Below are positions 250 through 58,510 of a stretch of DNA of 64,000 bases, piece by piece. This DNA is from Candidatus Hydrothermales bacterium (lineage in GTDB: Bacteria > Hydrothermota > Hydrothermia > Hydrothermales > JAJRUZ01). Position 1 is the stretch's first letter; each line of letters starts with the position of its first letter. Under the pieces are notes generated by a model, which had not been told where the DNA came from, did no database searches, and saw only the letters and a program-made list of their open reading frames with translations. Where the stretch lies: the NCBI GenBank assembly GCA_039630235.1, contig JBCNVI010000005.1:37690-101689 (forward strand), read 5' to 3'. A program made the position numbers and the translations under genes.

Positions 250-342
250 CCGTAGCACTTTCTCTTGTAAGGGTTGAACTTTTATTCACAATTTTCATTA
301 TAATATAAAATGCTCAAAATGTCAATAAAAGGGTGAATTAAA

Positions 343-1672: not shown

Positions 1673-3207
1673 ATAACAAAATTTTTTATACTAAAGAAGA
1701 TCTTAAGAAATACGAATTTTTAGAGGGCGATTTAAAGCCCGGGAAGTATCCATTTACAAGAGCTATCTATGAGGAAATGTACACAAAAAAGCTCTGGACA
1801 ATGAGACAGTACTCTGGATTTGGGACTCCGGAGGAAACAAACGAAAGGTTTAAAAAAATGATAAAGGAGGGACAAACAGGACTATCTCTTGCCTTTGATT
1901 TACCAACTCAACTTGGTCTTGACCCTGACCATACTCTTTCAAAGGGAGAAGTGGGAAGAGTGGGAGTCTCCGTTTGGAGCGTTGATTCAATGAGAAGAGT
2001 TTTAAAAGACATTGAGATTGATAAGATCTCACTTTCTATGACCATAAACGCTACAGCCGGCATTTTGTTAGCCTTTTACTTGGCAATCGCTGAAGAAAGA
2101 GGTATTCCAAAGGATAAACTCAGAGGAACAATTCAAAACGACATTTTAAAGGAATTTGCTGCAAGAGGAAATTATATCTATCCCGTAAAGGAATCTATGA
2201 GACTTAATATCGATGTTATCGAATTTTCACTGAAAAATCTTCCCAATTTTTATCCTATATCAGTAAGTGGATACCACTTTAGAGAAAAGGGAGCAAGTGC
2301 TGTACAAGAGGTTGCCTTTACTATAGCTGATGCTATTGAGTATGTAAAGGGGACTGTTGAAAGAGGAATTGATCCAGATACCATAGGAAGAAGGATAACC
2401 TTCTTTTTTTCTTCCCACAATAATTTCTTTGAGGAAATTGCAAAATTCAGAGCTGCAAGGAGAGTATGGGCTATTATAATGAAGGAAAAGTTCGGAGCAA
2501 AAGATGAAAAGGCAATGCATATGAGATTCCACACCCAGACAGCTGGCTCTACACTGCAGGCACAGTCCCCTATTTTAAATATAATAAGAGTGACTTCTCA
2601 GGCAATGGCTGCTATTTTAGGAGGAACACAGAGCCTTCATACAAACAGTTTCGACGAGGCACTTTCCTTACCGACAGAAGAGTCTGCCTTAATTGCCTTA
2701 AGAACACAACAAATTCTTGCCTATGAAACAGGCATTGCCGAAGTAACAGACCCACTTGGAGGCTCTTTTTATGTAGAGGCTTTAACAAGAAAAATTGAAG
2801 AAGAAGTTTTTTCTCTTTTGAAAGAAATTGAGGAAAGAGGGGGAGCAGCAGAGTGTGTTGAAAAGGGTCTTTTTCAAAAATGGATTGAGGAAAATGCTTA
2901 CTTAGAACAAAAAAGTATAGAAGAAAAAAAGAAGATAATAGTTGGCTTAAATGCCTTCAGATCTGAAAAAGATCAAAAAGTTAAGATATTTAAGATTAAA
3001 AGTAGGGGGGAAAGAGATGAAATGAGAAGGATAAAAGAGTTTAGGAAAAAGAGAGATAAAAAACTTGTAGAGGAAAAATTAGAGATGTTAAAAGAAAAGG
3101 CACAGAGTAAGGAGAATCTCATGGAGGCTATAATAGATTGTGTTAAGGCAAATTGTACGTTAGGAGAAATTTCTTATGAACTTGAAAAGATCTGGAAAAG
3201 GGTCTAA
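1669..3207 (+). CDS. Methylmalonyl-CoA mutase family, catalytic (substrate-binding TIM barrel) subunit without a B12-binding domain
   Basis: 512 aa. The whole length reads as the MCM N-terminal catalytic domain (FTRAIYEEMYTKKLWTMRQYSGFGTPEETNERFK, GQTGLSLAFDLPTQ). No C-terminal cobalamin-binding (DxHxxG) domain is present. Confidence 0.8.
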   Translation: MNNKIFYTKEDLKKYEFLEGDLKPGKYPFTRAIYEEMYTKKLWTMRQYSGFGTPEETNERFKKMIKEGQTGLSLAFDLPTQLGLDPDHTLSKGEVGRVGVSVWSVDSMRRVLKDIEIDKISLSMTINATAGILLAFYLAIAEERGIPKDKLRGTIQNDILKEFAARGNYIYPVKESMRLNIDVIEFSLKNLPNFYPISVSGYHFREKGASAVQEVAFTIADAIEYVKGTVERGIDPDTIGRRITFFFSSHNNFFEEIAKFRAARRVWAIIMKEKFGAKDEKAMHMRFHTQTAGSTLQAQSPILNIIRVTSQAMAAILGGTQSLHTNSFDEALSLPTEESALIALRTQQILAYETGIAEVTDPLGGSFYVEALTRKIEEEVFSLLKEIEERGGAAECVEKGLFQKWIEENAYLEQKSIEEKKKIIVGLNAFRSEKDQKVKIFKIKSRGERDEMRRIKEFRKKRDKKLVEEKLEMLKEKAQSKENLMEAIIDCVKANCTLGEISYELEKIWKRV

Positions 3208-3231
3208 ATCCCTCTAAAGTTTTTCTTAAAA

Positions 3232-31585: not shown

Positions 31586-31603
31586 ACTTTTTCTCCTTCA
31601 ATT

Positions 31604-31867: not shown

Positions 31868-31882
31868 ACCCTGCTTTTTTCC

Positions 31883-32062
31883 CTATACCCCAGCATCATT
31901 CAATTTTTTAACCAAGTTCTCTATTTTGCTTATAACACCGTTTAGCTTCTCCTTCAATTCTGAGTTTTCTTTTTCTAGAGTATCACATCTTTCCCTATAT
32001 TCCCTGAGCTTTAGTAGTAATTCTTCAATTTTACTTTCAAGCATAAATAAAGTATCATCCAT
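31883..32062 (-). CDS. Unlisted small coiled-coil ORF (59 aa), ZapB-like
   Basis: Own translation: MDDTLFMLESKIEELLLKLREYRERCDTLEKENSELKEKLNGVISKIENLVKKLNDAGV. Continuous heptad pattern; strong SD (ggaggagaaaaaATG); immediately upstream of zapA. Confidence 0.4.
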   Translation of the reverse strand: MDDTLFMLESKIEELLLKLREYRERCDTLEKENSELKEKLNGVISKIENLVKKLNDAGV

Positions 32063-32132
32063 TTTTTCTCCTCCATAGAAATCCTATAAGGAGGGGAATT
32101 GAACCCTTTAAGCTAGCTGGCAAACTCTTCTT

Positions 32133-34457
32133 TTACCCCCTTAATTTAAAACCTATTTTTTTCTCTACATATTCAACAATTTTTTCCACTTCTTTATCTA
32201 CTTCCCTCTCTGAAAGAGTCTTATCCATACTTCTAAAGAAAACTCTAAAAGTAAAATTTTTCTCTCCCTCCCTTAAGGGTTTTCCTTTGTACACGTCAAA
32301 AAGTATAAATCTTTCAATTAATGTTTCATTTTTTAGTTTTTTAAATAACCTTATGATTTCAGAGGCATTGACATCTTCTGGTCCCACAAAGGAAAGATCC
32401 CTTGAAAGAGCTGGATAAGTAGGTAAAGACTTAAAAGTTAAATCTTTTTTAAAAGTTAACTTATTAACGCTAAGTTCAGAGTAAACAGCCTCCAGCTTAA
32501 GATCGTAAATATCAAGAATTTCTTCTTTTACTTCGCCGATATACCCTATTTTCTCCTCGTTAATGAAAATAGATGCAGAGTAGTTAAAAAATGGGTAACT
32601 TTCCTCTATAAAATAAATCTCATCTTCAAAGTGTTCAAGGAACGATTCCAAAATTCCCTTAAGTTCAAAATAAATCTCCACATTACTTTCTTTTATCCAA
32701 TTATCTTCTACTAAATTTGTTAAAAGTAACCCTATTTTCTCCTCCTCTTCAAAATCCTTGTAGAAAACTTTTCCAATTTCGAATAGTTTTTTAACTTTTT
32801 CTCCTCTTCTAACGTTGTTTCTCAAAGAGTTTAGTAGAGATGGAAGAAGTGAGGGTCTTAAAACTCCAAATCTTTCTGAAAGTGGATTTTTAATTTTTAA
32901 GACCTTTTCTGAAAATAGCCTTGCCTCCTTTTCATCAATTAATGAAATGGAGACACACTCGAGGAAACCCTCCCCCCTAAAGTAATCTCTTATCCTATCT
33001 TGAAATAAATTTCTTTTCCCAACAAAGGAAGAAATACTTTCTGCCTCCGATTCAAAATTTTCATAGCCATAAACTCTTGCTATCTCCTCTATCAGATCTT
33101 CCTCTATTTCTATATCTCTCCTAAAGGTTGGTACCACCACCTCAAGCGTATTTTTCTCTAATTTACAACTCATGTAAAGCCTTTCAAGAATTTTCTGGGA
33201 AGTATAAAGATCAAACTCATCACCAAGAATTTTTTTCAGTTTATTTTCCTTAAGATAAACTTTTTTAGGTTTTACCACACTTTTAATAACATCGATTTTT
33301 CTATAAGGGGTACCTCCTGAAAGGTCCATTACAAGGTCTCTTAGTCTTAGTGCCGCGTACTCCACCATATTAAAATCAGCGCCTCTTTCAAATCTATAAG
33401 AGGATTCTGTTTGAATATTAAACTTTTTACTTGTTTTTCTAATGTTTATTTTATCGAAGAAGGCGCTTTCACAGAGTATTTCTTCGGTTTCCTCTGTAAC
33501 AGCAGAGTTTTCTCCTCCAATTATACCAGCTAATGCAAGAACTTTCTCACTATCTGATATAACCATAACACTTTCATCAAGTTCTCTTGTTTTACCATCA
33601 AGACAAAGCAAAGCCTCCCCTTTTCTTGCGTTTCTCACTATAACTTTTTCTTTTATTTTCTTCAAATCAAAAACATGAGTAGGATGCCCAGTTTCAAGCA
33701 AAATGTAATTTGAAATATCAACTACCAAATTTATAGATCTAATTCCGCATAGAAATAGCCTATGTTTTATAAGATCTGGGGTCTTTGCCTTTTTTAAATT
33801 TTTTATAATTATTCCAACATATCTATCACAACTCACATTTTCTTCAATTTCAATTATAAAATCTATCTCATCTTCTTTAATTTTTTTTATCTCAGGAATT
33901 CTTAACTCAAGGTTTAAATAAGATGAAAGATCTCTTGCAATTCCTATAACAGAAAGTAAGTCGGGTCTGTTTGGATAAATTTCAAGATCATAAACAAAAT
34001 CGTTTAAACCGATTAAATCTTTTGGATCTTTATCTAAATCTACTTTATCGTCAAGAAAAATTACTGTTTCACTTTTATCAGAAAGACCGAGTTCTTCCTC
34101 TGATACGATGGTGCCCTCTGATTTTTCACCGGCAATATGTTTCACATCTACTTTAAAATCCTTAAGTAAGGTTCCCGGCGGAGCGTAAATTACTTTCTTT
34201 CTCTTTTCCAAAAAAGGAGCACCTGAAACAACTTGATAAACCCCCTTTTTAGTTCTAAGTTTTAAAACAAAAAGCTTATCTCTTTTTTGGTGTCTCTCTA
34301 CACTTTCTATCTCTGCTACCATTAAATTCTCTTTACCCTTTGATAAATCAATAACTTCTTTAACAGGCATTCCTAATTTATTAAAAATTTCTATAAGATC
34401 TGATGGGGGAACTTCTAAGTCTATATAATCTTTTAGCCAGTTATAGGTGACTCTCAT
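32133..34457 (-). CDS. pheT: Phenylalanine--tRNA ligase beta subunit
   Basis: 774 aa, N-terminal tRNA-binding domain (MRVTYNWLKDYIDL), B3/4, B5 and FDX-ACB domains in canonical order. Confidence 0.95.
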   Translation of the reverse strand: MRVTYNWLKDYIDLEVPPSDLIEIFNKLGMPVKEVIDLSKGKENLMVAEIESVERHQKRDKLFVLKLRTKKGVYQVVSGAPFLEKRKKVIYAPPGTLLKDFKVDVKHIAGEKSEGTIVSEEELGLSDKSETVIFLDDKVDLDKDPKDLIGLNDFVYDLEIYPNRPDLLSVIGIARDLSSYLNLELRIPEIKKIKEDEIDFIIEIEENVSCDRYVGIIIKNLKKAKTPDLIKHRLFLCGIRSINLVVDISNYILLETGHPTHVFDLKKIKEKVIVRNARKGEALLCLDGKTRELDESVMVISDSEKVLALAGIIGGENSAVTEETEEILCESAFFDKINIRKTSKKFNIQTESSYRFERGADFNMVEYAALRLRDLVMDLSGGTPYRKIDVIKSVVKPKKVYLKENKLKKILGDEFDLYTSQKILERLYMSCKLEKNTLEVVVPTFRRDIEIEEDLIEEIARVYGYENFESEAESISSFVGKRNLFQDRIRDYFRGEGFLECVSISLIDEKEARLFSEKVLKIKNPLSERFGVLRPSLLPSLLNSLRNNVRRGEKVKKLFEIGKVFYKDFEEEEKIGLLLTNLVEDNWIKESNVEIYFELKGILESFLEHFEDEIYFIEESYPFFNYSASIFINEEKIGYIGEVKEEILDIYDLKLEAVYSELSVNKLTFKKDLTFKSLPTYPALSRDLSFVGPEDVNASEIIRLFKKLKNETLIERFILFDVYKGKPLREGEKNFTFRVFFRSMDKTLSEREVDKEVEKIVEYVEKKIGFKLRG

Positions 34458-34458
34458 A

Positions 34459-35445
34459 CTAATAGATTGAGAATTGTTTTAAAAATCCTCTTACGTTTTC
34501 AAAAAAGAGTCTTATATCGGGTATTTTATATTTGACCATAACTAATCTTTCAACGCCTACTCCGAAGGCATAGCCGTTCCATTCTTCTGGATCTATATTA
34601 CAGTTTTGCAGTACCTTTGGATGAACCATACCGCAACCTGCTATCTCTAAAAACCTTTTTCCCTCTGGTGTTTCCCACAGAATCGAAACCTCTGCAGAGG
34701 GCTCTGTGAACGGAAAGTAAGAAGGTTCAAATTTAATTACAAGATCCTTTTTTTCAAAATATTCCTTAAGAAAAAGTTCTAAAGTTCCCTTTAAATTAGA
34801 AAAGCTTACACTTTTATTTATATAGAGGCCTTCAACTTGATGAAAAACAGGTGAATGAGAGGCGTCAAAGTTGTCGCGCCTGTATACCCTCCCTGGAGCT
34901 ATTATTCTTATAGGTGGTTTTTTCTTTAACATTGTCCTTATTTGAATTGGTGAGGTATGAGTTCTAAGGAGAAGAACTTCTTTTTCAAGAAATAAGGTTG
35001 CTTGCATATCTCTTGCTGGGTGCCATTTTGGTATGTTAAGGGCTTCAAAGTTATTAAACTCTGACTCTATTTCAGGACCTGTTTCTACTTCAAAGCCAAG
35101 GCCAACAAAAATCTCTTCCATTCTTCTTAACTCTTCTCTAAGAACATGAAGGTAGCCTCTTTGCTTTAAAACCCCGGGGAGTGTAGGGTCTATTTCCTTT
35201 TTCTTTTTAACTTCAAATGTTTTTTTTCTTATCTCTATTTCACTCTCAAGAAAATTTTTTAACTCATTAAGTGCCTTCCCAACCTCCTTTCTTCTTTCGG
35301 GCTCTAACTCTTTTAATTTGTCAAAGAGTTTTTTTATTAAACCTTTTTTTCCTAAATATTTAATTCTTATGTTTTCTAAATCATGAGCGTTTTTAACGTT
35401 TTTCAGTTCTATTTCAATTTCTTCCCTGAGTTTTTCAATTTCCAT
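34459..35445 (-). CDS. pheS: Phenylalanine--tRNA ligase alpha subunit
   Basis: 328 aa; class II aaRS motifs (HPARDMQATLF; FPFTEPSAEV; GCGMVHPKV...AFGVGVERL). Confidence 0.95.
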   Translation of the reverse strand: MEIEKLREEIEIELKNVKNAHDLENIRIKYLGKKGLIKKLFDKLKELEPERRKEVGKALNELKNFLESEIEIRKKTFEVKKKKEIDPTLPGVLKQRGYLHVLREELRRMEEIFVGLGFEVETGPEIESEFNNFEALNIPKWHPARDMQATLFLEKEVLLLRTHTSPIQIRTMLKKKPPIRIIAPGRVYRRDNFDASHSPVFHQVEGLYINKSVSFSNLKGTLELFLKEYFEKKDLVIKFEPSYFPFTEPSAEVSILWETPEGKRFLEIAGCGMVHPKVLQNCNIDPEEWNGYAFGVGVERLVMVKYKIPDIRLFFENVRGFLKQFSIY

Positions 35446-35791
35446 TAGGAGCCATTACGTTTTTAACTATTTCTTTAAAGCTTTCAGGTTCTTTAACTGC
35501 GAGGAATGCAAGGATTTTCCTATTAATTAAGACTCCCTTTTTCCTGAGGGCATTAATAAACTCATTATATTTTACGCCGAGAGATCTACAGAAGGCGTTT
35601 ATTCTTGTTATCCATAGTTTTCTGAATTCTCTCTTTTTTTCTTTGCGATGTCTATAGGAGTATCTGAGGGATTTTAGGACTGCTTCGTTTGCCTTTTTAA
35701 AGGTGCTTGATTTTTGGCCGTAGTATCCCTTTGCCATCTTTCTTATTTTTTTATGTCTTTTTCTCGTTTTTACACCACCTTTTACTCGCAT
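35435..35791 (-). CDS. rplT: 50S ribosomal protein L20
   Basis: MRVKGGVKTRKRHKKIRKMAKGYYG is the classic L20 N-terminus; 118 aa. Its own TATAAT and SD sequences sit upstream (35800-35830, reverse strand). Confidence 0.9.
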   Translation of the reverse strand: MRVKGGVKTRKRHKKIRKMAKGYYGQKSSTFKKANEAVLKSLRYSYRHRKEKKREFRKLWITRINAFCRSLGVKYNEFINALRKKGVLINRKILAFLAVKEPESFKEIVKNVMAPNGN

Positions 35792-35961
35792 TTTTTTCCT
35801 CCTTTAGGCTGAGAGAATAATTATACTTTCAAAATTTTTTTTATTTCAATAAACTTTTCTTCTATGAAAGTGTAAAAATAGAAGAGAAATTTAATAAAAT
35901 TAAAATAGTTTGAAACATTAATTTAAGAGGTTCTATTCCTTAAAAAAACTTACTATTAATC

Positions 35962-48399: not shown

Positions 48400-50358
48400 A
48401 TGATAATCTTATTATTTTTCATAATAAATATGACGCCAATATCTTTTTGGACAGCTGGTAATTCAAGGTACGTTACTAGTAAGGACACACTTTTATATCT
48501 TATATCCGGTGGAGCAGTCTTAACTTTCCGATTTGGGGCTGGCATTCCTCAATTTAAAAAAGAAATAATAACAGAAGGTTCATTGTTTGATGTTGATTTT
48601 ATAGGTGATACTATTTTTTTAGCAGGAGAGCTTGGCCTAAAAATCTTAAATATTCAAAATCTATCAAATCCAATACTTATCGGAAACTATAGCGCCCAAG
48701 AGATTGTCTCTTATGAAAATCTATATCCCTACGGCTATGGTGTTTCAAGAGGAAAAATTAAAATTTTTAGACTCGATACTTCGCAATTACCTGAAGATCT
48801 ATATACTTATTCGTTGCCTGGATTTGTAAACAAAATTAAAATATATTCCAATTTAGGCTTTGCAATCGCAGGAGATACAATATACATTCTAAATCTTCAA
48901 AATCCTATAAGTCCTCAAATATATAGCAGAGTAAATACAAGAGCTTACGTCAGAGATATTTATAAAAGAAACGATTCTCTTTTTGTATTAGCTGGAGACT
49001 CATTTAAAATTTATAAAATTCAAAATCCTTCTCTTCCACAACGCTTATATAGTTTCAAAATAGTGGGGTTTGGAGAAAGTTTCGAACTTTTCTCAAATAT
49101 TTCTATTATAGCTCTTGGTTTTTCAGGAGTTGGAATTTATAACATAGAAAATGGAATAGAAATAAACCATAATTATTCTTTCTCAAATTGTTTTTCAGTT
49201 AAAAAAATAAGCTCTTATGTATATGCTGCAGACCTTGACCTTGGTCTTATAACTCTTTCATACCCTACTCTCATGGTTCTTGATACCTTTTCAACACCAC
49301 AGTTAACCTACAGAGCGAAGGTTATACAAGATACGATTCTTGTTTTAGCTTCAGGAACAGGCGGTGTTTTCTTTTTAAACATAAAAGATAGAGCAAAACC
49401 TTATTATATAAACTCAATAAATACACCTGGAAGTGCCTTTGATGTGGAGGTGTATAATGATACGATACTTTATGTAGCTGATGGGATTGAGGGACTAAGA
49501 ATTTATAAGATTAAAAATATCCGTTTGCCAGTACAAACTGGGTACACTACTGTAAACGGCTACGTCAAGGCAATATCGCTAAATTATCCCTTTGTTTATA
49601 GTGCAAATGGACCAGGCTATGGTTTTTCAATCCTTCATGTGGGCGATCCAACAAAACCGAGAGAAATAACAAACTTCACAACAACTGGTAATAGTGAAGA
49701 TGTACTTTTTTATCCACCCTTTTATCTTATATTAGCAGATGGTTTTGCTGGAATTAAAGTTTTTAATGTACAGGATACAAAAAATGTTGTGCTTTTAACT
49801 TCTCTTCCAACTTACGGTAGTTCACAATCTTTAAAAGTAAGCGGATATAAGCTTGCTGTTGCCGAGGGTTGGGTAGGAGGTGTCTCATTGTGGGACATAT
49901 CAAATATTTCAAATCCTCAATTTTACAGTAATTTTTCTACACCAGGATTTGCATATGATGTAGAGTTCATTCATCCTGACACACTAGTTGTGGCAGATGG
50001 AACAGGTTATGGACTAAGGAAAATAGATATTTCAAATCCTTATAGTCCAAGTGAGGTTAGTTTTAAAATTATTTTCGGTGACCCAAGAGGCGTCTCTTAT
50101 TCAAACGGTCTTTTATATACATCCCTTGGTTTACTTGGCGTAAGCATAGTGAATCCTCACATTACATTTATAAAAGAAAAAGTTCTCTCACCTATAGATA
50201 GGGAAGAAGAAAAAAAGATAGCACTTTTGTACTTGCCTCCATTCTTAAAAGAAAATTTATTTTTCGATTCCTCTGGTAGAAAACTAAAAATAAAAGCTCG
50301 AGGTACTTATATAATAAAAATCAATGGAAATTATTATAAAATTGTAAATGTAAAGTAA
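48400..50358 (+). CDS. LVIVD-repeat beta-propeller protein with T9SS-type C-terminal sorting domain
   Basis: Signal peptide. Seven or more repeats of about 45 aa, each starting A[GD][DE]..G[LI].[IV][FYW][ND][IV]....P (for example AGELGLKILNIQNLSNP, ADGIEGLRIYKIKN, AEGWVGGVSLWDISNISNP). C-terminal DSSGRKLKIKARGTYIIKINGNYYKIV is a CTD-like tail. Confidence 0.6.
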   Translation: MIILLFFIINMTPISFWTAGNSRYVTSKDTLLYLISGGAVLTFRFGAGIPQFKKEIITEGSLFDVDFIGDTIFLAGELGLKILNIQNLSNPILIGNYSAQEIVSYENLYPYGYGVSRGKIKIFRLDTSQLPEDLYTYSLPGFVNKIKIYSNLGFAIAGDTIYILNLQNPISPQIYSRVNTRAYVRDIYKRNDSLFVLAGDSFKIYKIQNPSLPQRLYSFKIVGFGESFELFSNISIIALGFSGVGIYNIENGIEINHNYSFSNCFSVKKISSYVYAADLDLGLITLSYPTLMVLDTFSTPQLTYRAKVIQDTILVLASGTGGVFFLNIKDRAKPYYINSINTPGSAFDVEVYNDTILYVADGIEGLRIYKIKNIRLPVQTGYTTVNGYVKAISLNYPFVYSANGPGYGFSILHVGDPTKPREITNFTTTGNSEDVLFYPPFYLILADGFAGIKVFNVQDTKNVVLLTSLPTYGSSQSLKVSGYKLAVAEGWVGGVSLWDISNISNPQFYSNFSTPGFAYDVEFIHPDTLVVADGTGYGLRKIDISNPYSPSEVSFKIIFGDPRGVSYSNGLLYTSLGLLGVSIVNPHITFIKEKVLSPIDREEEKKIALLYLPPFLKENLFFDSSGRKLKIKARGTYIIKINGNYYKIVNVK

Positions 50359-50387
50359 GGTTCAAATCCTTAAAAAATTGAAAGACC

Positions 50388-52196
50388 ATGATAAATTTTT
50401 TAATAGTGTCGATAATTCTACTAAATGAAGGATTTGAGGGAGGGAGTCTGCCTTACGGATGGAGGGTAGGAAATGGTGGAAGTCCGCTACGCACATGGAG
50501 AATAGCTCAATATGGCGAGTATTTTCCAGTAGAACCTCCACAACAAGGTAATTACTATATTTTATGTGACACAAATTCTATACTGTATCAAGATACCCTA
50601 TTTACTCCTGGAATTGATGTTCCTACCAGTATTGTAAAACTGAAATTATATTACAACATATCTTTTCTTAAGGATACAATTTCTCTTTCAAGAGGTGACA
50701 TATTAATCAGAACAAAGGCACAGGCAGGTTCATGGACCAGTTGGGTACCAGTTAAAATTTACGGGGGTTCTCCAGTTCCAATATTTGTTAATCAGAGAGA
50801 CTCAGTTGACTTACAGAGTTTTATAAATGCAGATAGTATAAAAATTGCCTTTGCCTATTATAGACTAGCTCAAGATACAGGCTTTTTTATGCTTGACTAC
50901 ATCGTTCTTTCAGCTAAACTTGGTAATGATGTCGGTGCAACTAAGATTATATCTCCTCGTGAATATTTTGAGGCAAATGTGCCTACACCTATTACAATAG
51001 AATTTCAAAATTTCTCAAATAATACTCTAAGTTTTTACGTAAAATGTGAGATAAAAGATAGTTTAACTAGAGTAAGAGTATATAGGGATAGTGGTTATGT
51101 TACAGTAGGTCCCCTTAGAAAAGATACAATCCAGTTATCAAACTTCACAGGTCAAGCAGAAAAAACATACTATGTTTTGGGATGGACAAATTATGCTTTA
51201 GACCCTGATCCTACAAACGATACAGTAAAGGCATATTCAAAAACGAAGCCCTTCTTCGGTGCAATAATAAAAGAAATACCTCTTCCTGGTACTTCTACGG
51301 CTTTTCAGGATATAACTTTTAAAACAGGTGATAATTTGATATTTATTGTTAATCAAGAAAAAGACACAGTTTTTTCTATTGACGATAATGGAAATGTAAT
51401 TTCAAAGTACAAACTTCAAGATTTTTCTCAGGGAACTACAATTGATGTTCCTTTTGGTATCTTTTACGACAAAGAGAGTGGAACTTTCTATACTTCACAG
51501 ATTGGTGTACCTCAGGGTGGTGGATCACCAGTTTGGTGTTATTTAGTTCACTATAGTGCAAACTTCAGTTTAATAGATAGCTTCAATACTCAAGGAAAGG
51601 GGCTTGGAGTGAACATCTTTGCTTTATGTGATGCTCAGGGAGAAAATTTGGGCTTTATGCATAGAGCTATTTATCCTGCAAGATATAGAATATATAAGCT
51701 TAACTTTCTCAATGAGGCTAATCCAAAAGTAGATTCTTTAAATCTTACTCAGCCTCTATACTTTTTAGCCGGAGCTTTAGAAGCATTAAATGATACATTA
51801 TTCATCTCATCTGGAATGGGTTTAACAGAGATAAAGCTCTTTACAAAATCAGGAGTAGTTTTAAAAAGTAAGACTTTTGATGGTGATGTAAGAGGTATTG
51901 CTGTAGAAAGGAGAGTTGTAGGTGAATATATAAATGCCTACGTAAACATAGGCGGAACCAAGCTTTATAAGATTTCAACGGGGTTAAAGTGGTCAAGTAA
52001 TATTTTTGAAAAAGAGAAAGTTCTAATTAATAATGTAATTCCAACTCTTGTGGTAGGCCAAGAAAATCTTCTCAAATACAAAATAAAGAAAGGTTTGATT
52101 GACCTATCAGGAAGGAGAGTAAAAACCTCTGGAGTAAGTAAGATACTGTATATTAAAGATGGAGATAAAAAATTTAAAGTTATTTTACTGAGATAA
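50388..52196 (+). CDS. Secreted protein (602 aa) with T9SS-type C-terminal sorting domain
   Basis: N-terminal signal-like segment; C-terminal LIDLSGRRVKTSGVSKILYIKDGDKKFKVILL fits the CTD pattern. Confidence 0.5.
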   Translation: MINFLIVSIILLNEGFEGGSLPYGWRVGNGGSPLRTWRIAQYGEYFPVEPPQQGNYYILCDTNSILYQDTLFTPGIDVPTSIVKLKLYYNISFLKDTISLSRGDILIRTKAQAGSWTSWVPVKIYGGSPVPIFVNQRDSVDLQSFINADSIKIAFAYYRLAQDTGFFMLDYIVLSAKLGNDVGATKIISPREYFEANVPTPITIEFQNFSNNTLSFYVKCEIKDSLTRVRVYRDSGYVTVGPLRKDTIQLSNFTGQAEKTYYVLGWTNYALDPDPTNDTVKAYSKTKPFFGAIIKEIPLPGTSTAFQDITFKTGDNLIFIVNQEKDTVFSIDDNGNVISKYKLQDFSQGTTIDVPFGIFYDKESGTFYTSQIGVPQGGGSPVWCYLVHYSANFSLIDSFNTQGKGLGVNIFALCDAQGENLGFMHRAIYPARYRIYKLNFLNEANPKVDSLNLTQPLYFLAGALEALNDTLFISSGMGLTEIKLFTKSGVVLKSKTFDGDVRGIAVERRVVGEYINAYVNIGGTKLYKISTGLKWSSNIFEKEKVLINNVIPTLVVGQENLLKYKIKKGLIDLSGRRVKTSGVSKILYIKDGDKKFKVILLR

Positions 52197-53154
52197 TTTC
52201 AAAACGGGAAAGGAAATTATTCTTTTGAAGTAAAATAAAGTTAGGATAATTAATCCATTTAGCTTCGATTCCATGCCTATTTAAAATCTCCTTCTTATAA
52301 ACTACTTTATCTTTTATTACTTTTAAGAAAAGTAGTTTTGTGGGAACTAATTCTTCTGAAAGCGACAATAGGACAAAAAGTGTATCTTTTAAAATAAAAG
52401 ATGACGGTTTAATAATTATATGGTAGTCAGAATCAAAGAGAAGGTTTATATTTTCAAGAGAGTCTATAATGTAGACTTTTTCGGGTAAAAGATCTTCATC
52501 TTTATCTGTTAATAAAAACATAAATCCTTTTTCTTTATCCATTTCAAGCACAGGTTCTTTATCAAAAAAAAGCTCTTTTTTACCTTCTTTATTAATTTTA
52601 AAAAGAGCATTTAACTTACCATCTTTTGTGCCATGAAGGAAAAAGATATTTGAATTAAAAACCAGCGGATAAACTCCTGTTGTAACTTCCTTTTTTTCAT
52701 TGTTTTTTGTAATGTAGATTTTTCCTCTAAGATCAAGTATAAAATTATTTTCTAATTTGGAATCATAAAAATCAAACTTATAGAAAAAGGTGTTTTTTCC
52801 GGTAACTTCAAAAACTTTTCTAATCTTTTTTTCACTATAACAAAAAATTTTTTTTAATTTTTTCGTTTTTTTGTCTCCTAAGTAATCATAAAGTGGAAAA
52901 AACAAAATGAAACTGACTCCTTCTCTTTTTAATTTTAACTCTCCAATCCCCTCCTTATAATTAAATAAACTTTGAATTTTACCTTTCTTCTTACGAATGT
53001 CAAAATTAAATAACTTTATTTCCTCAGCAAAATTATTATAATCTTTATCTAAACTATAAAAAAGAAGTAGAGAATCGCTTTTAATTAACGGGAGCCAGCT
53101 CTTAACATAACCCTTTTCTTCTAAGAGTAGTGAAAATATTAAAAAAAGGGGCAT
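52180..53154 (-). CDS. Hypothetical protein (324 aa)
   Basis: Long ORF, Lys-rich, no recognisable motif. Confidence 0.35.
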   Translation of the reverse strand: MPLFLIFSLLLEEKGYVKSWLPLIKSDSLLLFYSLDKDYNNFAEEIKLFNFDIRKKKGKIQSLFNYKEGIGELKLKREGVSFILFFPLYDYLGDKKTKKLKKIFCYSEKKIRKVFEVTGKNTFFYKFDFYDSKLENNFILDLRGKIYITKNNEKKEVTTGVYPLVFNSNIFFLHGTKDGKLNALFKINKEGKKELFFDKEPVLEMDKEKGFMFLLTDKDEDLLPEKVYIIDSLENINLLFDSDYHIIIKPSSFILKDTLFVLLSLSEELVPTKLLFLKVIKDKVVYKKEILNRHGIEAKWINYPNFILLQKNNFLSRFEIISVK

Positions 53155-53159
53155 TTTAT

Positions 53160-53190
53160 AAAAATAAAAAGGGGGGGATTTAACCCCCCT
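53160..53190 (-). terminator. GC-clamp hairpin (7-bp G/C stem, 6-nt loop) followed by a U-run on the reverse strand. Intrinsic-terminator-like; also an instance of the recurrent hairpin motif.
   Basis: Forward strand: gggggggatttaacccccc (53171-53189). The reverse strand reads GGGGGGTTAAATCCCCCCC followed by tttttattttt. It lies between the stop of the 53223..53894 gene and the start of the 52180..53154 gene. Confidence 0.55.
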
Positions 53191-53222
53191 TCTCTAATAT
53201 TTTTTAGTCTATAAAAACTAAA

Positions 53223-53894
53223 TTAAAAACTGTAGGAAGCTGTTAAAACAGGGCTCCATCCGAAACCACCATTTGCAAACTCATGATCTGTCGTAATATT
53301 AATAGTAACTCCTCCTGTTTCGCTTGTCCAGATTACAAAACCTGCATTAAAGGCTACGTGTTTATTATCATCTCCATATTCATAGTTCATCATTAATGTA
53401 TCAAGGATATTGTTAATGTAAACAATGCTCAAAACACCAAGTACATCAGCTCCAGCTAGTGAACCAGAGAAACCAGCATATCCAGCAGCCCCAATGTATC
53501 CACCGTAGCTAATAGCATAAGCTAAATTACCAGCTACCCAAAGGTCAATTTTAGGCTTATACATGAATTTTCCTCTTGCCTTACATCTAACGTTAGAGAG
53601 ATCAACACCTACCAGTTCTTCAATATATCTAATAAGTCTATCACATGGAATAGGGAATTCAAGTCCTCCACCTGAAAGTGCCTTCATTTCATTAATGAAT
53701 TTTTCATCTTTTGCCATAGTCATAATCGCCTTTTCGAAATCAGCCTTGTTTATAGCATAGCCACCCATCTCCTGAATCTCTTGCACAGTAGCAAACCTTA
53801 TACCAGGATCACTACTTGAAGTTACATCACGGGTTTCTTTACAACCACTTAGTACTAACCCAAAGATTATTCCCCCTATTAATAACTTTCTCAT
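53223..53894 (-). CDS. Outer-membrane lipoprotein / beta-barrel-like protein
   Basis: Lipobox LVLSGC; Gly/aromatic-rich C-terminal half ending in a terminal Phe (…LTASYSF), typical of outer-membrane beta-barrel proteins. Confidence 0.5.
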   Translation of the reverse strand: MRKLLIGGIIFGLVLSGCKETRDVTSSSDPGIRFATVQEIQEMGGYAINKADFEKAIMTMAKDEKFINEMKALSGGGLEFPIPCDRLIRYIEELVGVDLSNVRCKARGKFMYKPKIDLWVAGNLAYAISYGGYIGAAGYAGFSGSLAGADVLGVLSIVYINNILDTLMMNYEYGDDNKHVAFNAGFVIWTSETGGVTINITTDHEFANGGFGWSPVLTASYSF

Positions 53895-53960
53895 AAACTT
53901 AACTCCTCCTATTTAATTAATAACACGGGACTTGAACCCTTTTTCATTTTTAAATCTCAT

Positions 53961-56927
53961 TTATTTAATTATAATAATCTTAACCCTTTCCTTTTCAACT
54001 TTATCAACGGGTAAAATGAAATATACTCCCTTTCCATACTTTTTAAGGGTTTTTAACTCTGAACCTGTAAGTTTTCTACCTGTAACATCATAAATATTTA
54101 TTAAAGAGTTATCATCATTTAGTAATTCGTAAGACTTTATGTTTCCTATAAATTTGAATTCAGTATCTTTCTTCATACCAAAAGTATTAAATGTAGACTG
54201 AACGGGAACAAACTCAATAGATGTGTTACTTCTTGGAAGAACATTTCCGCTTCCATAGGCATAAAGATGCGCTATTGCACCATTTGCATCTTCAATTCCA
54301 ACTGCTGTAACATACTCGTCAGTTACACTCTGGTAATTAAATCTTATTGTTCCATTACTATAAAGAATAACCTGAAAAGTTTGTTTGTTATTATTAGAAT
54401 AATTTCTGATTCTATACCATGTAACAGCAAAATAAGAGGGATTTGAAGCGTAAGTTATTTTTGCACCCTGAGTTGTATCAGGTGGATAAAGATCTCTCCA
54501 GTAGGGTGCAATTACAGCATTTGGAGCTGTTGAATTTGGCATCTGTTGAGGAGTATAAGTTGTTGAATTAGATGTAAAGGAAAGCCAGCCGTTACTACAA
54601 ACGTATACTGAATTATAGTTAGAACCAAAGAAAGTAAAATTGAAAGGCAGAGTAAATCTTATCGTTTGATCATCTCCTGTTATTCCTGTAGGTGTAGAAG
54701 TTGTTACCCATGAGTAGCTAACCTGTCTCATGTTGTATCTTGCATTAGCCCCACCTATTCCATGCCTTGCAAAAGCTTGTATTATCTTACTTTCGTTTGC
54801 ACCATTATATAGATCCCTATCTGCTTGGATCATTGCATTTCTTCCAGCTAAGAAATCCTTAGGATAATATGTGTAAGCTCTCCATGTGACTCGATCAGCT
54901 GTTGTCTTATCTGTGTAGGTTCTAAAATCCCATAGCGCTCCGGAATATATTCGAGAGTCATCGTGAACTTCACCTACCCAATGATCAGGATACTTGTAAT
55001 CATTCTGGAGGTTTCTCTGATATTGAGCTGGCATCACCCACTCACCCATAATTGGGTCCCCAAATTGAGTACAGGCCCAGTAATCTGCCCAAGCTTCATT
55101 CATAGCACCAGGCTGATCTCTATATGGTAGTCCACCAGCACTTGCATAAATCTTATCAACAACACCATGATTATACTCATGATAAATCACATCAGCTGAT
55201 CTTGCCATATTCTGTATCTGATAGCTTGGATTACCCCTACCAAAATGCATTGTTCCGTTGTAATAGTAAGCATTAGCACCCTGATAGTTCCTATCTACTG
55301 AATGAGAGTAAACAGTTGCCTGAATCTGATAATCCATTCCTGTAAATCCAAAGTTATTCTTGAAAAAGTCATGAATCTTATTTACGTGATAGAAAACCAT
55401 AACCTCTGTGGTGTGCTTTCCCTCTGTTGTTTCATCAGAAGGATATTTCCATTCCCAGGATACTTCATTTCCGACACTACCCTGCTGAGGAATAAGTCTA
55501 TAAGCGGCATTGTTGGAAGGTGTAGGAACTGTCACTCCAACTGTTCCGCTTTCGTTTTCAATTCCTCTAGTTGTTGTATAATCGTTAGTTATAGACTTAT
55601 ATCTGAATTCAATTATACCATTAGGATATAAAACCACTTGAAAGCTCTGTCTGTTAGCGTTACCGTAATTTTTTATGTTATCCCATGTAACTACAAACTT
55701 ATCTGATCCAGAATAATAGGTAATTGAGCCTCCACCAGCAGCGGGATTAAGGTCTCTCCAGAATGGAGCTATAAGAGCATTAGGAGCATTTGAGTTTGGA
55801 ATTTGAGCAGGAGTATATGCGTTTGAATTGGAAGTAAAACTCATAAATCCATTTGTACATATATATATAGAAGAGTAATTTTTACCATAAAAGGGAAATG
55901 AAAAGGGAAGAGAAAACTGTAATGTTTGATCATCACCTGTTAAACCGGTTGCTGTACTTGTGTTATCCCATGCATAAGTTACACTTTGAACAGTGTAAGT
56001 AACTCCCTGAGAGGTAAAAACAGCTCTTCCAGGTGGATTGTCATCGATAAGAACTTTTACATAGGGACCCTCAAGATAGGCTGTTATGTTCCCTGATGCT
56101 GAACTTGAATAGTATCCACTTGCGTTTGTTGTTGCTGTAGAACTTCCAATATACACATATTGGTTTGCCATAGGATATTTTTGAAGGGCATCTGCTCCAG
56201 TACTTGGAAAACACCAACCGTAAACATAACCTGAAACTGTTTTTAGTTCATTTCTTCTTTCAATTATCAAGCCCTTTATTGCATCAATGTAATAAATAAA
56301 ATCTCCAAGAGGTTCCTCTGAGAAAAACCTTACTTTATAAGTAAGAAGAAGTGAATTCTCATAAGGGTAGTAAACAAGCTCAATTTTTAAATCTTTAGGT
56401 TCACCCCTTAAATTCAAATCTCTGTATATAGTACTTAAAGCTTCTCCCTCTTTAATATTTGGTACTGTAAAGAGGGGAGAACCATCATAGGGGAAGTAGT
56501 AAGAGGAAAGGTAATATATATTTCCTCTTTTATTTACATGGATACCAACAAAGGAATTTTCTACCCTTATACCGTTTATTACTTCTTCAAAAGTTACATG
56601 TGTATAGCCCAGTTCATCCTCTTTAACTTCTAAAAGAGAAAGATTTTTAGGATCTATTCCAAGGAGATAACCTTTTTGACTTAAGAAATTATAGACTTTT
56701 TCTAAAGCATTTTTACCTGGAACAGAAATTTCAAAATTAGAGATTAATCTTGGAAAACCAAAGTCTCCATATAAGATATCAGCCTTTATTCCGAAATCAT
56801 AATAGATATTTTCACTTATAGAAGAGGGAGCATGCTTAGCACAGGGCTTTAGAAGATCTTTGGGAGGTAAATAAATTTTGTTAAAATCCCCGCTGTATAT
56901 AAAGGTAAATATTAAAATTTTAAACAT
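53961..56927 (-). CDS. M36 (fungalysin)-like zinc metalloprotease (988 aa) with N-terminal propeptide-like region, internally duplicated ~80-aa domain, and T9SS-type C-terminal sorting domain
   Basis: HEYNHGV zinc motif (fungalysin HEYTHG-like). Two copies of a ~80-aa module (…TGLTGDDQTLQFSLPFSFPFYGKNYSSIYICTNGFMSFTS… and …TGITGDDQTIRFTLPFNFTFFGSNYNSVYVCSNGWLSFTS…). C-terminal YDVTGRKLTGSELKTLKKYGKGVYFILP. Confidence 0.6.
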   Translation of the reverse strand: MFKILIFTFIYSGDFNKIYLPPKDLLKPCAKHAPSSISENIYYDFGIKADILYGDFGFPRLISNFEISVPGKNALEKVYNFLSQKGYLLGIDPKNLSLLEVKEDELGYTHVTFEEVINGIRVENSFVGIHVNKRGNIYYLSSYYFPYDGSPLFTVPNIKEGEALSTIYRDLNLRGEPKDLKIELVYYPYENSLLLTYKVRFFSEEPLGDFIYYIDAIKGLIIERRNELKTVSGYVYGWCFPSTGADALQKYPMANQYVYIGSSTATTNASGYYSSSASGNITAYLEGPYVKVLIDDNPPGRAVFTSQGVTYTVQSVTYAWDNTSTATGLTGDDQTLQFSLPFSFPFYGKNYSSIYICTNGFMSFTSNSNAYTPAQIPNSNAPNALIAPFWRDLNPAAGGGSITYYSGSDKFVVTWDNIKNYGNANRQSFQVVLYPNGIIEFRYKSITNDYTTTRGIENESGTVGVTVPTPSNNAAYRLIPQQGSVGNEVSWEWKYPSDETTEGKHTTEVMVFYHVNKIHDFFKNNFGFTGMDYQIQATVYSHSVDRNYQGANAYYYNGTMHFGRGNPSYQIQNMARSADVIYHEYNHGVVDKIYASAGGLPYRDQPGAMNEAWADYWACTQFGDPIMGEWVMPAQYQRNLQNDYKYPDHWVGEVHDDSRIYSGALWDFRTYTDKTTADRVTWRAYTYYPKDFLAGRNAMIQADRDLYNGANESKIIQAFARHGIGGANARYNMRQVSYSWVTTSTPTGITGDDQTIRFTLPFNFTFFGSNYNSVYVCSNGWLSFTSNSTTYTPQQMPNSTAPNAVIAPYWRDLYPPDTTQGAKITYASNPSYFAVTWYRIRNYSNNNKQTFQVILYSNGTIRFNYQSVTDEYVTAVGIEDANGAIAHLYAYGSGNVLPRSNTSIEFVPVQSTFNTFGMKKDTEFKFIGNIKSYELLNDDNSLINIYDVTGRKLTGSELKTLKKYGKGVYFILPVDKVEKERVKIIIIK

Positions 56928-56970
56928 CGTTTAAAAAGTAAATAAACCAGAGAATTGAACTCCATAGATC

Positions 56971-57516
56971 TCATTTTATCAAATCTATAAAAATACCAAA
57001 GAAGGTGCCAAAGGCGATAGCCAAAGAATAAGGTATATGTAATTTAAAACTTCTTTCTTTATCATAAAAACAACTTCTCTTTGCATAAAGGGAATTAAGA
57101 AAACCTATAAATCCTTCTTTTCCCTCCCTAACTACTCCCCTTAAAACCACTAGAGTGTTCCCCTTTAAAAAAGAATAAATTAAAGATATTAAAAGTCCTG
57201 CAATTGAAGTTAAAAATATAATTAAAAGGATTGATGGGTAAGCTATCCACGATCCAATCCCTGTAATTAATTTAACATCACCTCCTCCGACACCACCTAA
57301 TTGAAAAAAAATATAAAAAAAAGCAAAAGCTATGAAGGCACCAATTAAAGAGTTTACAAAACCTTCAAATTTGTTAAAAATTAAGTTATAAATAAGACCT
57401 GAAAAGAAAAGAGGAAAAGTTATTTTATTAAAAATTTTTCCAAACCTCAAATCTGTGTAGACAGATATGATGGTTGCTAACCCTACAACTTGAAATTTTA
57501 TAAATTCCTGTATCAT
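56971..57516 (-). CDS. Prepilin peptidase, A24 family (TadV/CpaA-like, no methyltransferase domain)
   Basis: 181 aa, 5 TM helices; first Asp in DLRFGKI and second catalytic motif GGGDVKLITG. Confidence 0.8.
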   Translation of the reverse strand: MIQEFIKFQVVGLATIISVYTDLRFGKIFNKITFPLFFSGLIYNLIFNKFEGFVNSLIGAFIAFAFFYIFFQLGGVGGGDVKLITGIGSWIAYPSILLIIFLTSIAGLLISLIYSFLKGNTLVVLRGVVREGKEGFIGFLNSLYAKRSCFYDKERSFKLHIPYSLAIAFGTFFGIFIDLIK

Positions 57517-57686
57517 TCAGGACCTGCCTGAACAGTCATTAGTTTATATCTCATCCATACAATTACCTTATGAACTTCTCTACCTAGAACCCTATAAGCT
57601 GCAAAGGCAAAAAGGGCTATAAGCCCTATTATCATTGCATACTCTACTGCTGTTGCTCCTTTTTCATTATAAATTAATCTTTTCAT
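57513..57686 (-). CDS. flp: Flp-family type IVb pilin (57 aa, not in the ORF track)
   Basis: Own translation: MKRLIYNEKGATAVEYAMIIGLIALFAFAAYRVLGREVHKVIVWMRYKLMTVQAGPE. Flp motif G-ATAV-EY followed by a hydrophobic helix. The stop overlaps the prepilin peptidase ATG (ATGA). Confidence 0.7.
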   Translation of the reverse strand: MKRLIYNEKGATAVEYAMIIGLIALFAFAAYRVLGREVHKVIVWMRYKLMTVQAGPE

Positions 57687-57692
57687 ACCCTT

Positions 57693-57857
57693 TTACCCTC
57701 CTGCTTTTGTTATTTGAATCCACATATTTTCTATAACTTTGTAAGTAACTCTACTAAGTGCTCTATAAGCTGCGAAAGCATAAAGAGAAATTAAACCTAT
57801 AAGGATTGCGTACTCAACGGCTGATGCACCTTTCTCATCAAATATTAACCCTTTCAT
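57693..57857 (-). CDS. flp: Flp-family type IVb pilin (54 aa; the ORF track extends it to a GTG at 57893)
   Basis: MKGLIFDEKGASAVEYAILIGLISLYAFAAYRALSRVTYKVIENMWIQITKAGG, taken from the ATG at 57855-57857. Confidence 0.7.
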   Translation of the reverse strand: MKGLIFDEKGASAVEYAILIGLISLYAFAAYRALSRVTYKVIENMWIQITKAGG

Positions 57858-58027
57858 TCTGGACCTGGGGTTGCCTCCTGCATCTTTCTCCACATCAAGG
57901 ATATTATTCTTTGAACCTGTTTACCTAAGGCTCTATAGGCTGCAAAGGCAAAAAGAGCTATAAGACCTATAATCATCGCATATTCTACTGCAGTAGCTCC
58001 CCTTTGATCTGTTAAAATTTTTCTCAT
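57854..58027 (-). CDS. flp: Flp-family type IVb pilin (57 aa, not in the ORF track)
   Basis: Own translation: MRKILTDQRGATAVEYAMIIGLIALFAFAAYRALGKQVQRIISLMWRKMQEATPGPE. SD aaggag upstream; ATGA overlap with the next pilin. Confidence 0.7.
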   Translation of the reverse strand: MRKILTDQRGATAVEYAMIIGLIALFAFAAYRALGKQVQRIISLMWRKMQEATPGPE

Positions 58028-58046
58028 ATTTTTACTCCTTCTTAAA

Positions 58047-58220
58047 TTAAGGAGGTCCTGGATATATGTAAAAAAACATATTAGTCATTTCATTTATAAT
58101 CTCTTCAACCTTCTTTGCTAGGTAGGAATAAAAAAGAGAAAGTCCTGTTACCCCCATAATAAACCCGTATTCTACACTTGAACCTCCCCTTTGTTCCCTT
58201 AAAAAATCAGAAAATTTCAT
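58047..58220 (-). CDS. Divergent Flp-like pilin (57 aa, not in the ORF track)
   Basis: Own translation: MKFSDFLREQRGGSSVEYGFIMGVTGLSLFYSYLAKKVEEIINEMTNMFFYIYPGPP. It keeps G-x4-EY and the C-terminal PGP motif but has a divergent helix and no SD. Confidence 0.5.
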   Translation of the reverse strand: MKFSDFLREQRGGSSVEYGFIMGVTGLSLFYSYLAKKVEEIINEMTNMFFYIYPGPP

Positions 58221-58293
58221 TTAAAAAAGAGAGCTGAGGGGTTTGAACCCTTTTTTAGATTTAACATGGGTATATCATTAGGCATATTTCCTT

Positions 58294-58464
58294 TTATTCA
58301 GGACCAGCACTTGCCTGTTGCATTTGTCTCCACATTTCACTAATAATCCTTTGAACCTGTTTACCTAGAGCCCTGTAAGCTGCGAAGGCAAAAAGGGCAA
58401 TAAGCCCAATTATCATTGCATACTCTACTGCTGTTGCTCCTCTTTCACATCTTAAAAGTCTCAT
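58294..58464 (-). CDS. flp: Flp-family type IVb pilin (56 aa, not in the ORF track)
   Basis: Own translation: MRLLRCERGATAVEYAMIIGLIALFAFAAYRALGKQVQRIISEMWRQMQQASAGPE. SD aaggagg upstream. Confidence 0.7.
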   Translation of the reverse strand: MRLLRCERGATAVEYAMIIGLIALFAFAAYRALGKQVQRIISEMWRQMQQASAGPE

Positions 58465-58510
58465 TCTTAAACCTCCTTTTTAATTTTAGGGGACTTGGAC
58501 CCCATAAATT

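Follow-up and report, generated by a model that had tools for sequence, protein, structure and literature searches.

We report that a short hairpin resembling the T-arm of tRNA recurs just upstream of start codons in a 64,000-nucleotide (nt) stretch of contig JBCNVI010000005.1 from a Candidatus Hydrothermales bacterium, the whole of which is hereafter called the window. The hairpin family is real and conserved, and it belongs to the downstream gene, as part of its leader or of the spacer between cistrons. Our preferred interpretation, which we hold with a little less than even confidence and whose mechanism we infer, is that the hairpin is a protein-recognised T-arm mimic placed in leaders and intercistronic spacers, where it would mark and insulate the 5′ boundary of the downstream cistron. 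Seven such sites had been listed in a sequence-only reading of the same stretch; the recurrence that it described is borne out by enrichment over chance, six of its seven sites stand, and three more were found in the window.

The core of the element is a 3-bp purine/pyrimidine stem (GGG/CCC, AGG/CCT or GAG/CTC), its 5′ arm always purine-rich, closing a 7-nt loop T-(T/C)-C-R-A-N-Y that is the T-loop consensus of tRNA. In tRNA numbering, G53, T54, A58 and C61 never vary among 38 aligned instances, and G52, C56 and C62 reach at least 90% conservation; T or C occupies position 55, purines predominate at position 57, and T or C predominates at position 60. Judged by its letters, the hairpin qualifies as a putative T-arm mimic, with the closing G-C pair, U54·A58, C56 and R57. 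It resembles the tRNA T-arm in its 7-nt loop set on G53-C61, in the invariant U54 and A58 of the reverse-Hoogsteen pair, in the near-invariant C56, in the preference for R57 and Y60, and in a stem with purines on the 5′ side and pyrimidines on the 3′ side; it differs in having three base pairs instead of five, no other arms, C55 in about a quarter of its members, and a setting in mRNA leaders. The sites in the window and the genuine T-arm used for comparison are as follows.

58489..58503, minus strand: T-arm-like hairpin GGGG.TCCAAGT.CCCC (group A); stop of a 165-aa gene 7-8 nt upstream, ATG (58464) of flp 24-25 nt downstream.
58238..58250, minus strand: T-arm-like hairpin GGG.TTCAAAC.CCC (group G); flp stop 43 nt upstream, ATG (58220) of a divergent Flp-like gene 17 nt downstream.
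56950..56962, minus strand: T-arm-like hairpin GAG.TTCAATT.CTC (group B); prepilin-peptidase stop 8 nt upstream, ATG (56927) of an M36/M4 protease 22 nt downstream.
53927..53939, minus strand: T-arm-like hairpin GGG.TTCAAGT.CCC (group C); M36 protease stop 21 nt upstream, ATG (53894) of a lipoprotein 32 nt downstream.
50358..50370, plus strand: T-arm-like hairpin AGG.TTCAAAT.CCT, extendable to UAAGG/CCUUA (group F); it shares its first base with the end of the TAA stop of a 652-aa LVIVD gene, and its own end lies 17 nt before the ATG of a 602-aa gene.
35928..35940, plus strand: T-arm-like hairpin AGG.TTCTATT.CCT (group E), beyond the sites of the sequence-only reading; between divergent genes, nothing co-directional lying upstream, acyl-CoA dehydrogenase ATG 21 nt downstream.
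32094..32106, minus strand: T-arm-like hairpin GGG.TTCAATT.CCC (group D); pheT stop 26 nt upstream, ATG of a ZapB-like gene 31 nt downstream.
3200..3212, plus strand: degenerate candidate member GGG.TCTAAAT.CCC (C56 to T), also beyond the earlier sites; overlaps the stop of a methylmalonyl-CoA mutase gene, ATG of a Cys/Met pyridoxal-phosphate (PLP) enzyme gene 19 nt past its end.
269..281, minus strand: tentative candidate member AAG.TTCAACC.CTT, found without requiring stem complementarity; ATG (249) of a PilM/FtsA-like open reading frame (ORF) 19 nt downstream.
297..325, minus strand: consensus sigma-70-type promoter, TTGACA, 17 nt, TATAAT, read directly from the sequence.
15419..15431, plus strand: genuine T-arm core GGG.TTCGAGT.CCC of tRNA-Gly(CCC) (gene 15368-15442), for comparison only.

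The lipoprotein site had previously been placed at 53918-53930, 9 nt off its real position at 53927-53939, with the 32 nt to the ATG correctly given, and the T-arm of tRNA-Gly, put at 15418-15430, is corrected to 15419-15431; the sites before the M36/M4 protease, the divergent Flp-like gene, flp, the ZapB-like gene and the 602-aa gene are as claimed. The earlier observation that the remaining tRNA arms are missing was confirmed: ARAGORN detected only tRNA-Gly(CCC) in the window (15368-15442, with an Rfam tRNA score of 68.9 bits), the hairpin sites having no acceptor, D or anticodon arm, and Rfam 15 returned no match of the hairpins to tRNA or any other family, either at the gathering threshold or at E ≤ 10. 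A tRNA gene or tRNA-derived pseudogene was accordingly rejected, no cloverleaf being found by either program.

The motif is far more frequent than base composition predicts. The exact string GGTTCAANTCC occurs four times in the window against 0.14 expected, a count that none of 100 shuffled sequences reached, and the 13-mer GGGTTCAANTCCC with at most two mismatches occurs 13 times against 3.5 expected. Thirteen of the 25 distinct intergenic sites with a 3-bp stem and 7-nt loop match the T-loop pattern exactly and in the sense orientation, with several more nearly matching; by our own estimate from base composition, the chance of this pattern is about 0.5% per hairpin site. A further exact string, GGTTCAAATCC, lies antisense at 14541-14551 (plus strand) inside an AlgX/SGNH-like gene (13022-14662), and is taken as a chance match, its stem being incomplete (TGG/CCT).

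We compared the window with genome contigs (L002, L003), metagenome contigs (L082-L084) and looked-up contigs (L085-L093), representing about nine genomes. PheT, whose best match in a genome is 84% identical, assigns the window to Candidatus Hydrothermales (WOR-3), and near-identical sequence is present in samples that include SRR28200751, SRR27730012 and JGI 3300020139. The motif occurs 11.9 times per 100 kb of Hydrothermales sequence (134 kb examined) versus 0.44 times per 100 kb of a 1.36-Mb control drawn from other phyla and distant WOR-3 genomes, where the matches appear to fall within coding sequence. A covariance model built from a gapless alignment of 38 curated instances gave 41 matches of at least 18.6 bits, all of them in Hydrothermales loci (about 0.25 Mb), and nothing above 18.5 bits in about 1.4 Mb of other lineages. 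One of these matches, at position 9958 of L091, is new and lies outside the training set, and another, at 17900 of L089, is probably spurious, being inside a coding sequence. In the window, the hairpin at 58489..58503 scores 25.9 bits and the degenerate candidate at 3200..3212 scores 22.1 bits; at 269..281 the model did not reach E ≤ 10, so that its membership is tentative. The hairpin was not found in about 40 kb of a WOR-3 lineage with a 70%-identical acyl-CoA dehydrogenase, a region with few long spacers.

Within the Hydrothermales, about nine related genomes retain the hairpin in the orthologous spacers while the flanks diverge, and this positional conservation reaches down to about 50% protein identity. 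Group A has orthologues in L082, L084, L085, L086, L088 and L089, with the loops TTCAATT, TTCGAGT, TCCAAAT and TTCAAAT, and group C is kept in L082, L083, L084, L085, L086, L088 and L089, 0-28 nt from the stop and 24-32 nt from the ATG. The group F stem is AGG/CCT, overlapping or abutting the stop codon, in six of six genomes (window, L084, L085, L086, L088 and L089). For group G, the L085 orthologue (17826-17838) has an identical core, and L088 has TTCAACT at 12135. The core of group D is identical in L002 though the flanks diverge; L003 carries GGG.TTCTATT.CCC overlapping the stop, L091 carries a variant with a 6-nt loop, and in the distant WOR-3 genomes L004 and L005 neither the spacer nor the hairpin is present at this position.

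The two arms of the stem are selected to pair. In a test that does not presuppose base pairs, all 28 matches to NNG-T[TC]CNAN[TC]-CNN outside long ORFs had both outer pairs Watson-Crick and spanned four stem types, while the same loop pattern inside ORFs gave 18, 13 and 12 cases with zero, one and two outer pairs, respectively. Covariation across relatives is seen in group B, whose stem is GAG/CTC in the window, L085 and L086 and GGG/CCC in L082, L084 and L089, a compensatory change. In L088 the group B stem is GGGG/CCUC with a G·U pair, located inside the last codons of the peptidase coding sequence; this pair would be a mismatch if read on the other strand. Covariation and a G·U pair tolerated only in the sense strand indicate that pairing is selected on that strand, that is, in RNA, and all curated instances are in the sense orientation relative to the flanking genes, on both DNA strands.

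The position of the hairpin is tied to the downstream start codon, as had been proposed, and not to the upstream stop. The distance from its 3′ end to the start codon has a median of 24 nt and an interquartile range of 21-26 nt, versus −1 to 68 nt from the upstream stop. The group E hairpin lies 20-24 nt from the same ATG in four genomes, although what lies upstream differs in each: the divergent rplT promoter region in the window, a 692-aa gene in L002, a 302-aa gene in L003 and a patatin gene in L091. Two of the L088 hairpins fall within the final codons of the upstream coding sequence. The tentative member at 269..281 begins 15 nt downstream of the −10 box of the promoter at 297..325, whose predicted transcript start is about 8 nt upstream of the hairpin, which would leave, in this one case, a 5′ overhang of about 8 nt. 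Taken together, the tight distance to the start, the exchange of upstream neighbours in group E, the cases inside coding sequence and the duplicated module (below) of L088 and the promoter case at 269-281 assign the hairpin to the downstream gene, be its leader a true 5′ UTR or a spacer between the cistrons of an operon. A Shine-Dalgarno (SD) sequence is found between hairpin and ATG in 25 of 40 instances, and the median spacing puts the hairpin at about −24 to −37, which is the 5′ edge of the footprint of the 30S ribosomal subunit. Of the shared 5′-untranslated-region (UTR) element envisaged by the sequence-only reading, the general idea holds, an RNA element in the 5′-UTR or intercistronic leader being most likely, and the RNA-binding-protein site that it listed among other roles is possible.

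Two further observations bear on these leaders. The hairpins at 12354-12366 and 14239-14251 (minus strand) of L088 belong to near-identical modules of hairpin, spacer, SD and ATG that extend through the first codons (MRLLR), one before a 56-aa Flp and the other before a 611-aa NIDO-domain protein, which suggests duplication of a 5′ module together with the signal-peptide start. The PilM/FtsA-like ORF (ATG at 249) below the perfect sigma-70 promoter runs past the window start, and a homology search with the truncated ORF gave no match.

How such a small hairpin could act is suggested by its energetics. Stem energies range from −0.1 to −5.5 kcal/mol at 37 °C, and most stems are predicted to be unfolded at 65 °C; the association with hot springs is one of the lineage, from its name and the literature. 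A generic stabilising hairpin, one of the roles previously put forward, is not supported by these 3-bp stems, which would need a T-loop fold, an RNA modification or a bound protein. Likewise, a purely thermodynamic stabiliser or barrier was rejected, the element being too weak and the fold z-scores of the leaders being about zero, and a longer minihelix with an acceptor-like extension was also discarded, since flanking pairs 4 to 7 are no better than in shuffles. Such weak thermodynamics call for a partner or a special fold.

We therefore favour, tentatively, the reading in which the T-loop fold is recognised by a factor that normally reads tRNA T-arms, because the bare stem is too weak to persist and conservation falls on exactly the positions that make a T-loop. 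Candidate factors would be T-loop modification enzymes such as TruB, TrmA/TrmFO or TrmI, and nucleases of tRNA processing or decay; the TruB activity in vitro and the bacterial GUΨCG sites cited below also speak for this reading. Once bound or modified, the hairpin would mark and insulate the 5′ boundary of the downstream cistron, which may be protected after endonucleolytic cleavage, the organism encoding RNase Y, and the AU-rich ribosome-binding site would be kept independent of the upstream sequence and its translation. The outcome would be that genes such as those of the flp pilin, the secreted protease, the lipoprotein and ZapB are expressed uncoupled from their upstream neighbours. Under this reading we infer transcription at every site, binding by a protein and an effect on stability or translation.

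The RNase Y gene lies in the window itself, in the operon 28746-35791 (minus strand; rplT, pheS, pheT, hairpin, zapB-like, zapA, mgsA-like AAA, RNase Y (rny), gcpE), which implies that the organism uses RNase Y-type mRNA decay. In this respect the hairpin is like the stabilisers of ompA in E. coli and of aprE and ermC in B. subtilis, and like intercistronic processing or stability hairpins: it is small, stands where a cistron begins in an RNase Y organism, and comes before genes whose products are expected to be required in larger amounts than those of the neighbours upstream. It is unlike the ompA, aprE and ermC elements, which are thermodynamically stable, lack loop conservation and must occupy the extreme 5′ end, in combining a marginal stem with a conserved loop.

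Several points weigh against this favoured explanation. About a quarter of the members carry C at position 55, which means that pseudouridylation at this position is not the common function; U54, C56 and A58 are compatible with m5U54 or m1A58 enzymes, with a nuclease or with another binding protein. In three members, from groups D and E, R57 is replaced by a pyrimidine. The group B hairpin of L086 is an exception to the positional rule, following the stop immediately and leaving 73 nt to the start, and the compactness of the genome could partly account for the tight spacing elsewhere. Finally, the comparison set consists mostly of a few syntenic loci with about ten independent sites, from which genome-wide behaviour is extrapolated.

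Should the mechanism be correct, this would be the first case of bacterial mRNA leaders making systematic use of a family of tRNA T-arm mimics, and it would provide a compact, sequence-defined handle, probably present in hundreds of copies per genome, that ties the tRNA-recognition machinery to operon-internal control of expression. A bolder version, "T-arm punctuation", in which a minimal T-arm at leaders and cistron junctions recruits the tRNA maturation or modification machinery (a T-loop methylase, a pseudouridine synthase or a T-loop-reading nuclease of tRNA processing) to cut, mark or lock polycistronic mRNAs at the 5′ boundary of selected cistrons, is in our judgement unlikely; if it were true, the processing and translation of mRNA throughout the compact, AT-rich genome of a thermophile would be under direct control of tRNA biology. 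The element is also useful as an annotation marker of true start codons and cistron boundaries in Hydrothermales/WOR-3 metagenome-assembled genomes.

The main rival is a translational operator or regulon, in which a T-arm-binding protein just upstream of the SD competes sterically with the 30S subunit and couples many genes to the availability of a tRNA or a tRNA-modification enzyme. A precedent exists in the thrS leader of E. coli, where threonyl-tRNA synthetase binds an anticodon-arm mimic upstream of the SD and competes with the 30S subunit. Our hairpin would likewise be a tRNA-arm mimic directly before the ribosome-binding site, and a protein attached to it could compete with the 30S; the tight distance to the start at the edge of its footprint, a loop identity conserved beyond the needs of pairing and a weak stem that needs a ligand all fit such an operator. 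Unlike thrS, a single autoregulatory site built on an anticodon arm and with a known ligand, the hairpin mimics the T-arm and precedes many unrelated genes (pilins, protease, ZapB, acyl-CoA dehydrogenase, PLP enzyme). Moreover, about 12 sites per 100 kb would amount to hundreds in each genome, a large number for a single regulator; no candidate regulator protein is known, and the upstream ORF often overlaps the hairpin, which would be melted at every round of translation. On balance we consider this rival doubtful.

Less probable still is that the hairpins are opportunistic or functional substrates of the enzymes that modify the T-loop of tRNA (m5U54, Ψ55, m1A58), the modification serving, for example, to lock a minimal hairpin in a thermophile or to mark the mRNA. 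In eukaryotic mRNAs, TRUB1/PUS4 (GUUCNANNC) and TRMT6/61A (GUUCRA) target the same stem-loop consensus, which the present motif fits within what would be mRNA; its U55 members would agree with what TruB/PUS4-type enzymes need, and U54, C56 and A58 are the conserved positions. However, members with C55 cannot receive Ψ55, and we know of no phenotype of T-loop modification marks in bacterial leaders, which also counts against this possibility. The eukaryotic sites are scattered, mostly in coding sequences and UTRs and with no positional rule, unlike the bacterial hairpins, which seem to be confined to leaders and intergenic regions, at a set distance from the start, and conserved between species. 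At present, modification of T-loops in bacterial mRNAs is addressed only through scattered sites of low stoichiometry, and the hairpin offers a natural test bed for a functional action of these enzymes on bacterial mRNAs. Three base pairs are no obstacle in vitro, where E. coli TruB modifies GUUCNANNC hairpins with 3-bp stems at 0.3 times the rate of tRNA (PMC13492117), and GUΨCG sites have been reported in bacterial mRNAs (PMC13236023).

That the element is a weak terminator, an attenuator, a pause site or a 3′-end stabiliser of the upstream gene appears improbable. Like intrinsic terminators, most sites lie 0-30 nt past a stop in co-directional spacers, the flanks tend to be A-rich upstream and T-rich downstream, and 14 of 40 have at least five T in the next 8 nt. 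Yet the remaining 26 have no U-tract, the 3-bp stems contrast with the 6-10 G-C pairs of true terminators in the same genomes, and none of the members passes a terminator scan on the coding strand, the hairpin at 58238 passing only in antisense. Unlike a terminator, the hairpin also occurs with no co-directional upstream gene (group E in the window and 269) and inside the ends of coding sequences, before the stop codon in L088, and the conservation of the loop would be left unexplained. A genuine terminator of this region makes the contrast plain:

53171..53189, minus strand: excluded from the hairpin family; intrinsic terminator GGGGGG.TTAAAT.CCCCCC(C) with the tail TTTTTATTTTT, behind the lipoprotein gene.

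This was the fifth of the sites previously listed as members and is the only one of them that passes the scan on the coding strand. It is a canonical intrinsic terminator, with six or seven G-C pairs, a T5AT5 tail and energies of −13.5 kcal/mol at 37 °C and −7.0 at 65 °C, and its orthologues in L084, L085, L086 and L088 are long-stem terminators with different, non-T-like loops. Only 16 nt separate its end from the ATG of the gene that follows in the same direction (52180-53154), an arrangement conserved in L085, L086 and L088; this gap leaves no room for a promoter, which puts the start or the mode of transcription of that gene in question.

A signal acting in DNA, either a promoter element (discriminator or alternative-sigma −35) or a palindromic operator, is very improbable. 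AT-rich −10-like hexamers do lie 0-6 nt upstream of several hairpins, and GGG could serve as a discriminator, but the spacing of these boxes is variable and they are expected by chance in spacers of about 80% A+T. A promoter at fixed distance was discarded as unproven, an anchored alignment of 20 instances having given generic AT-richness with −10-like hexamers at gaps of 0-10 nt. The operator half-site pair and the alternative-sigma −35 element of the sequence-only reading are both unsupported, in view of arms that covary, G·U tolerated only on the sense strand and a strictly sense orientation; an SD between hairpin and ATG further means that the hairpin cannot be a −35 element, and in the sole case with a consensus promoter (269-281) it lies downstream of the predicted +1. 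Least credible of all is a selfish or neutral repeat (REP/MITE-like or a tRNA-gene fragment) with no role in expression: the hairpin is, like REP/BIME elements, an abundant, lineage-specific intergenic palindrome, but those are 20-40 nt long, often paired, found in both orientations and untied to starts, whereas it is 13 nt long, single in each spacer, never in inverted pairs, always sense, start-linked and kept at orthologous positions to about 50% protein identity, even inside coding sequence.

Searches of the literature, both for T-arm-like hairpins between genes and for the motif strings, gave only tRNA contexts. The element would work in the manner of known tRNA mimics and leader hairpins, from which it differs in mimicking the T-arm, in recurring at many unrelated genes with a positional rule and in being specific to one lineage.

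The genes below the hairpins do not define a functional class. By Pfam annotation they include ZapB-like, acyl-CoA dehydrogenase, Cys/Met PLP enzyme and PilM/FtsA-like genes in addition to the Flp pilins, the M36/M4 protease, the lipoprotein, which has an LSGC lipobox, and the 602-aa protein with no assigned function, and the hairpin occupies seven of the 12 co-directional spacers of at least 24 nt in the window. The co-regulated cell-surface regulon inferred earlier from the surface genes is contradicted by this annotation, cytoplasmic genes being included. The genes between 53 and 58.5 kb are on the minus strand. In the same neighbourhood, a 162-nt "spacer" at 62224-62385 (minus strand) encodes an unlisted Flp-like peptide (…GAAAVEYAMIIGVIAL…), at a place equivalent to that of a 50-aa Flp_Fap gene in L086, which brings the flp paralogues of the locus to at least six.

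Additional structures were seen next to single hairpins. Directly 3′ of the group D hairpin, at 32063-32093 (minus strand), a predicted stem CCUCCUUAUAG…CUAUGGAGGAG sequesters the SD of the zapB-like gene; anti-SD sequestration by a 3′ arm was nevertheless rejected as a general property, being limited to single cases (group D in the window, group C in L082) and not conserved in orthologues (for group D, not in L002). L086 carries an additional inverted repeat, AACCCGC…GCGGGTT, whose 24-nt loop is A-rich; it is found at 9275-9347 (minus strand), between the hairpin and the start of the M36 protease, and is absent from the other genomes. Elsewhere in the window, the regions 6623-7664 and 9480-10756 have no long ORFs, and their composition resembles that of coding sequence for membrane proteins; disrupted genes or frameshifts in a glycosyltransferase/carbamoyltransferase cluster may account for them.

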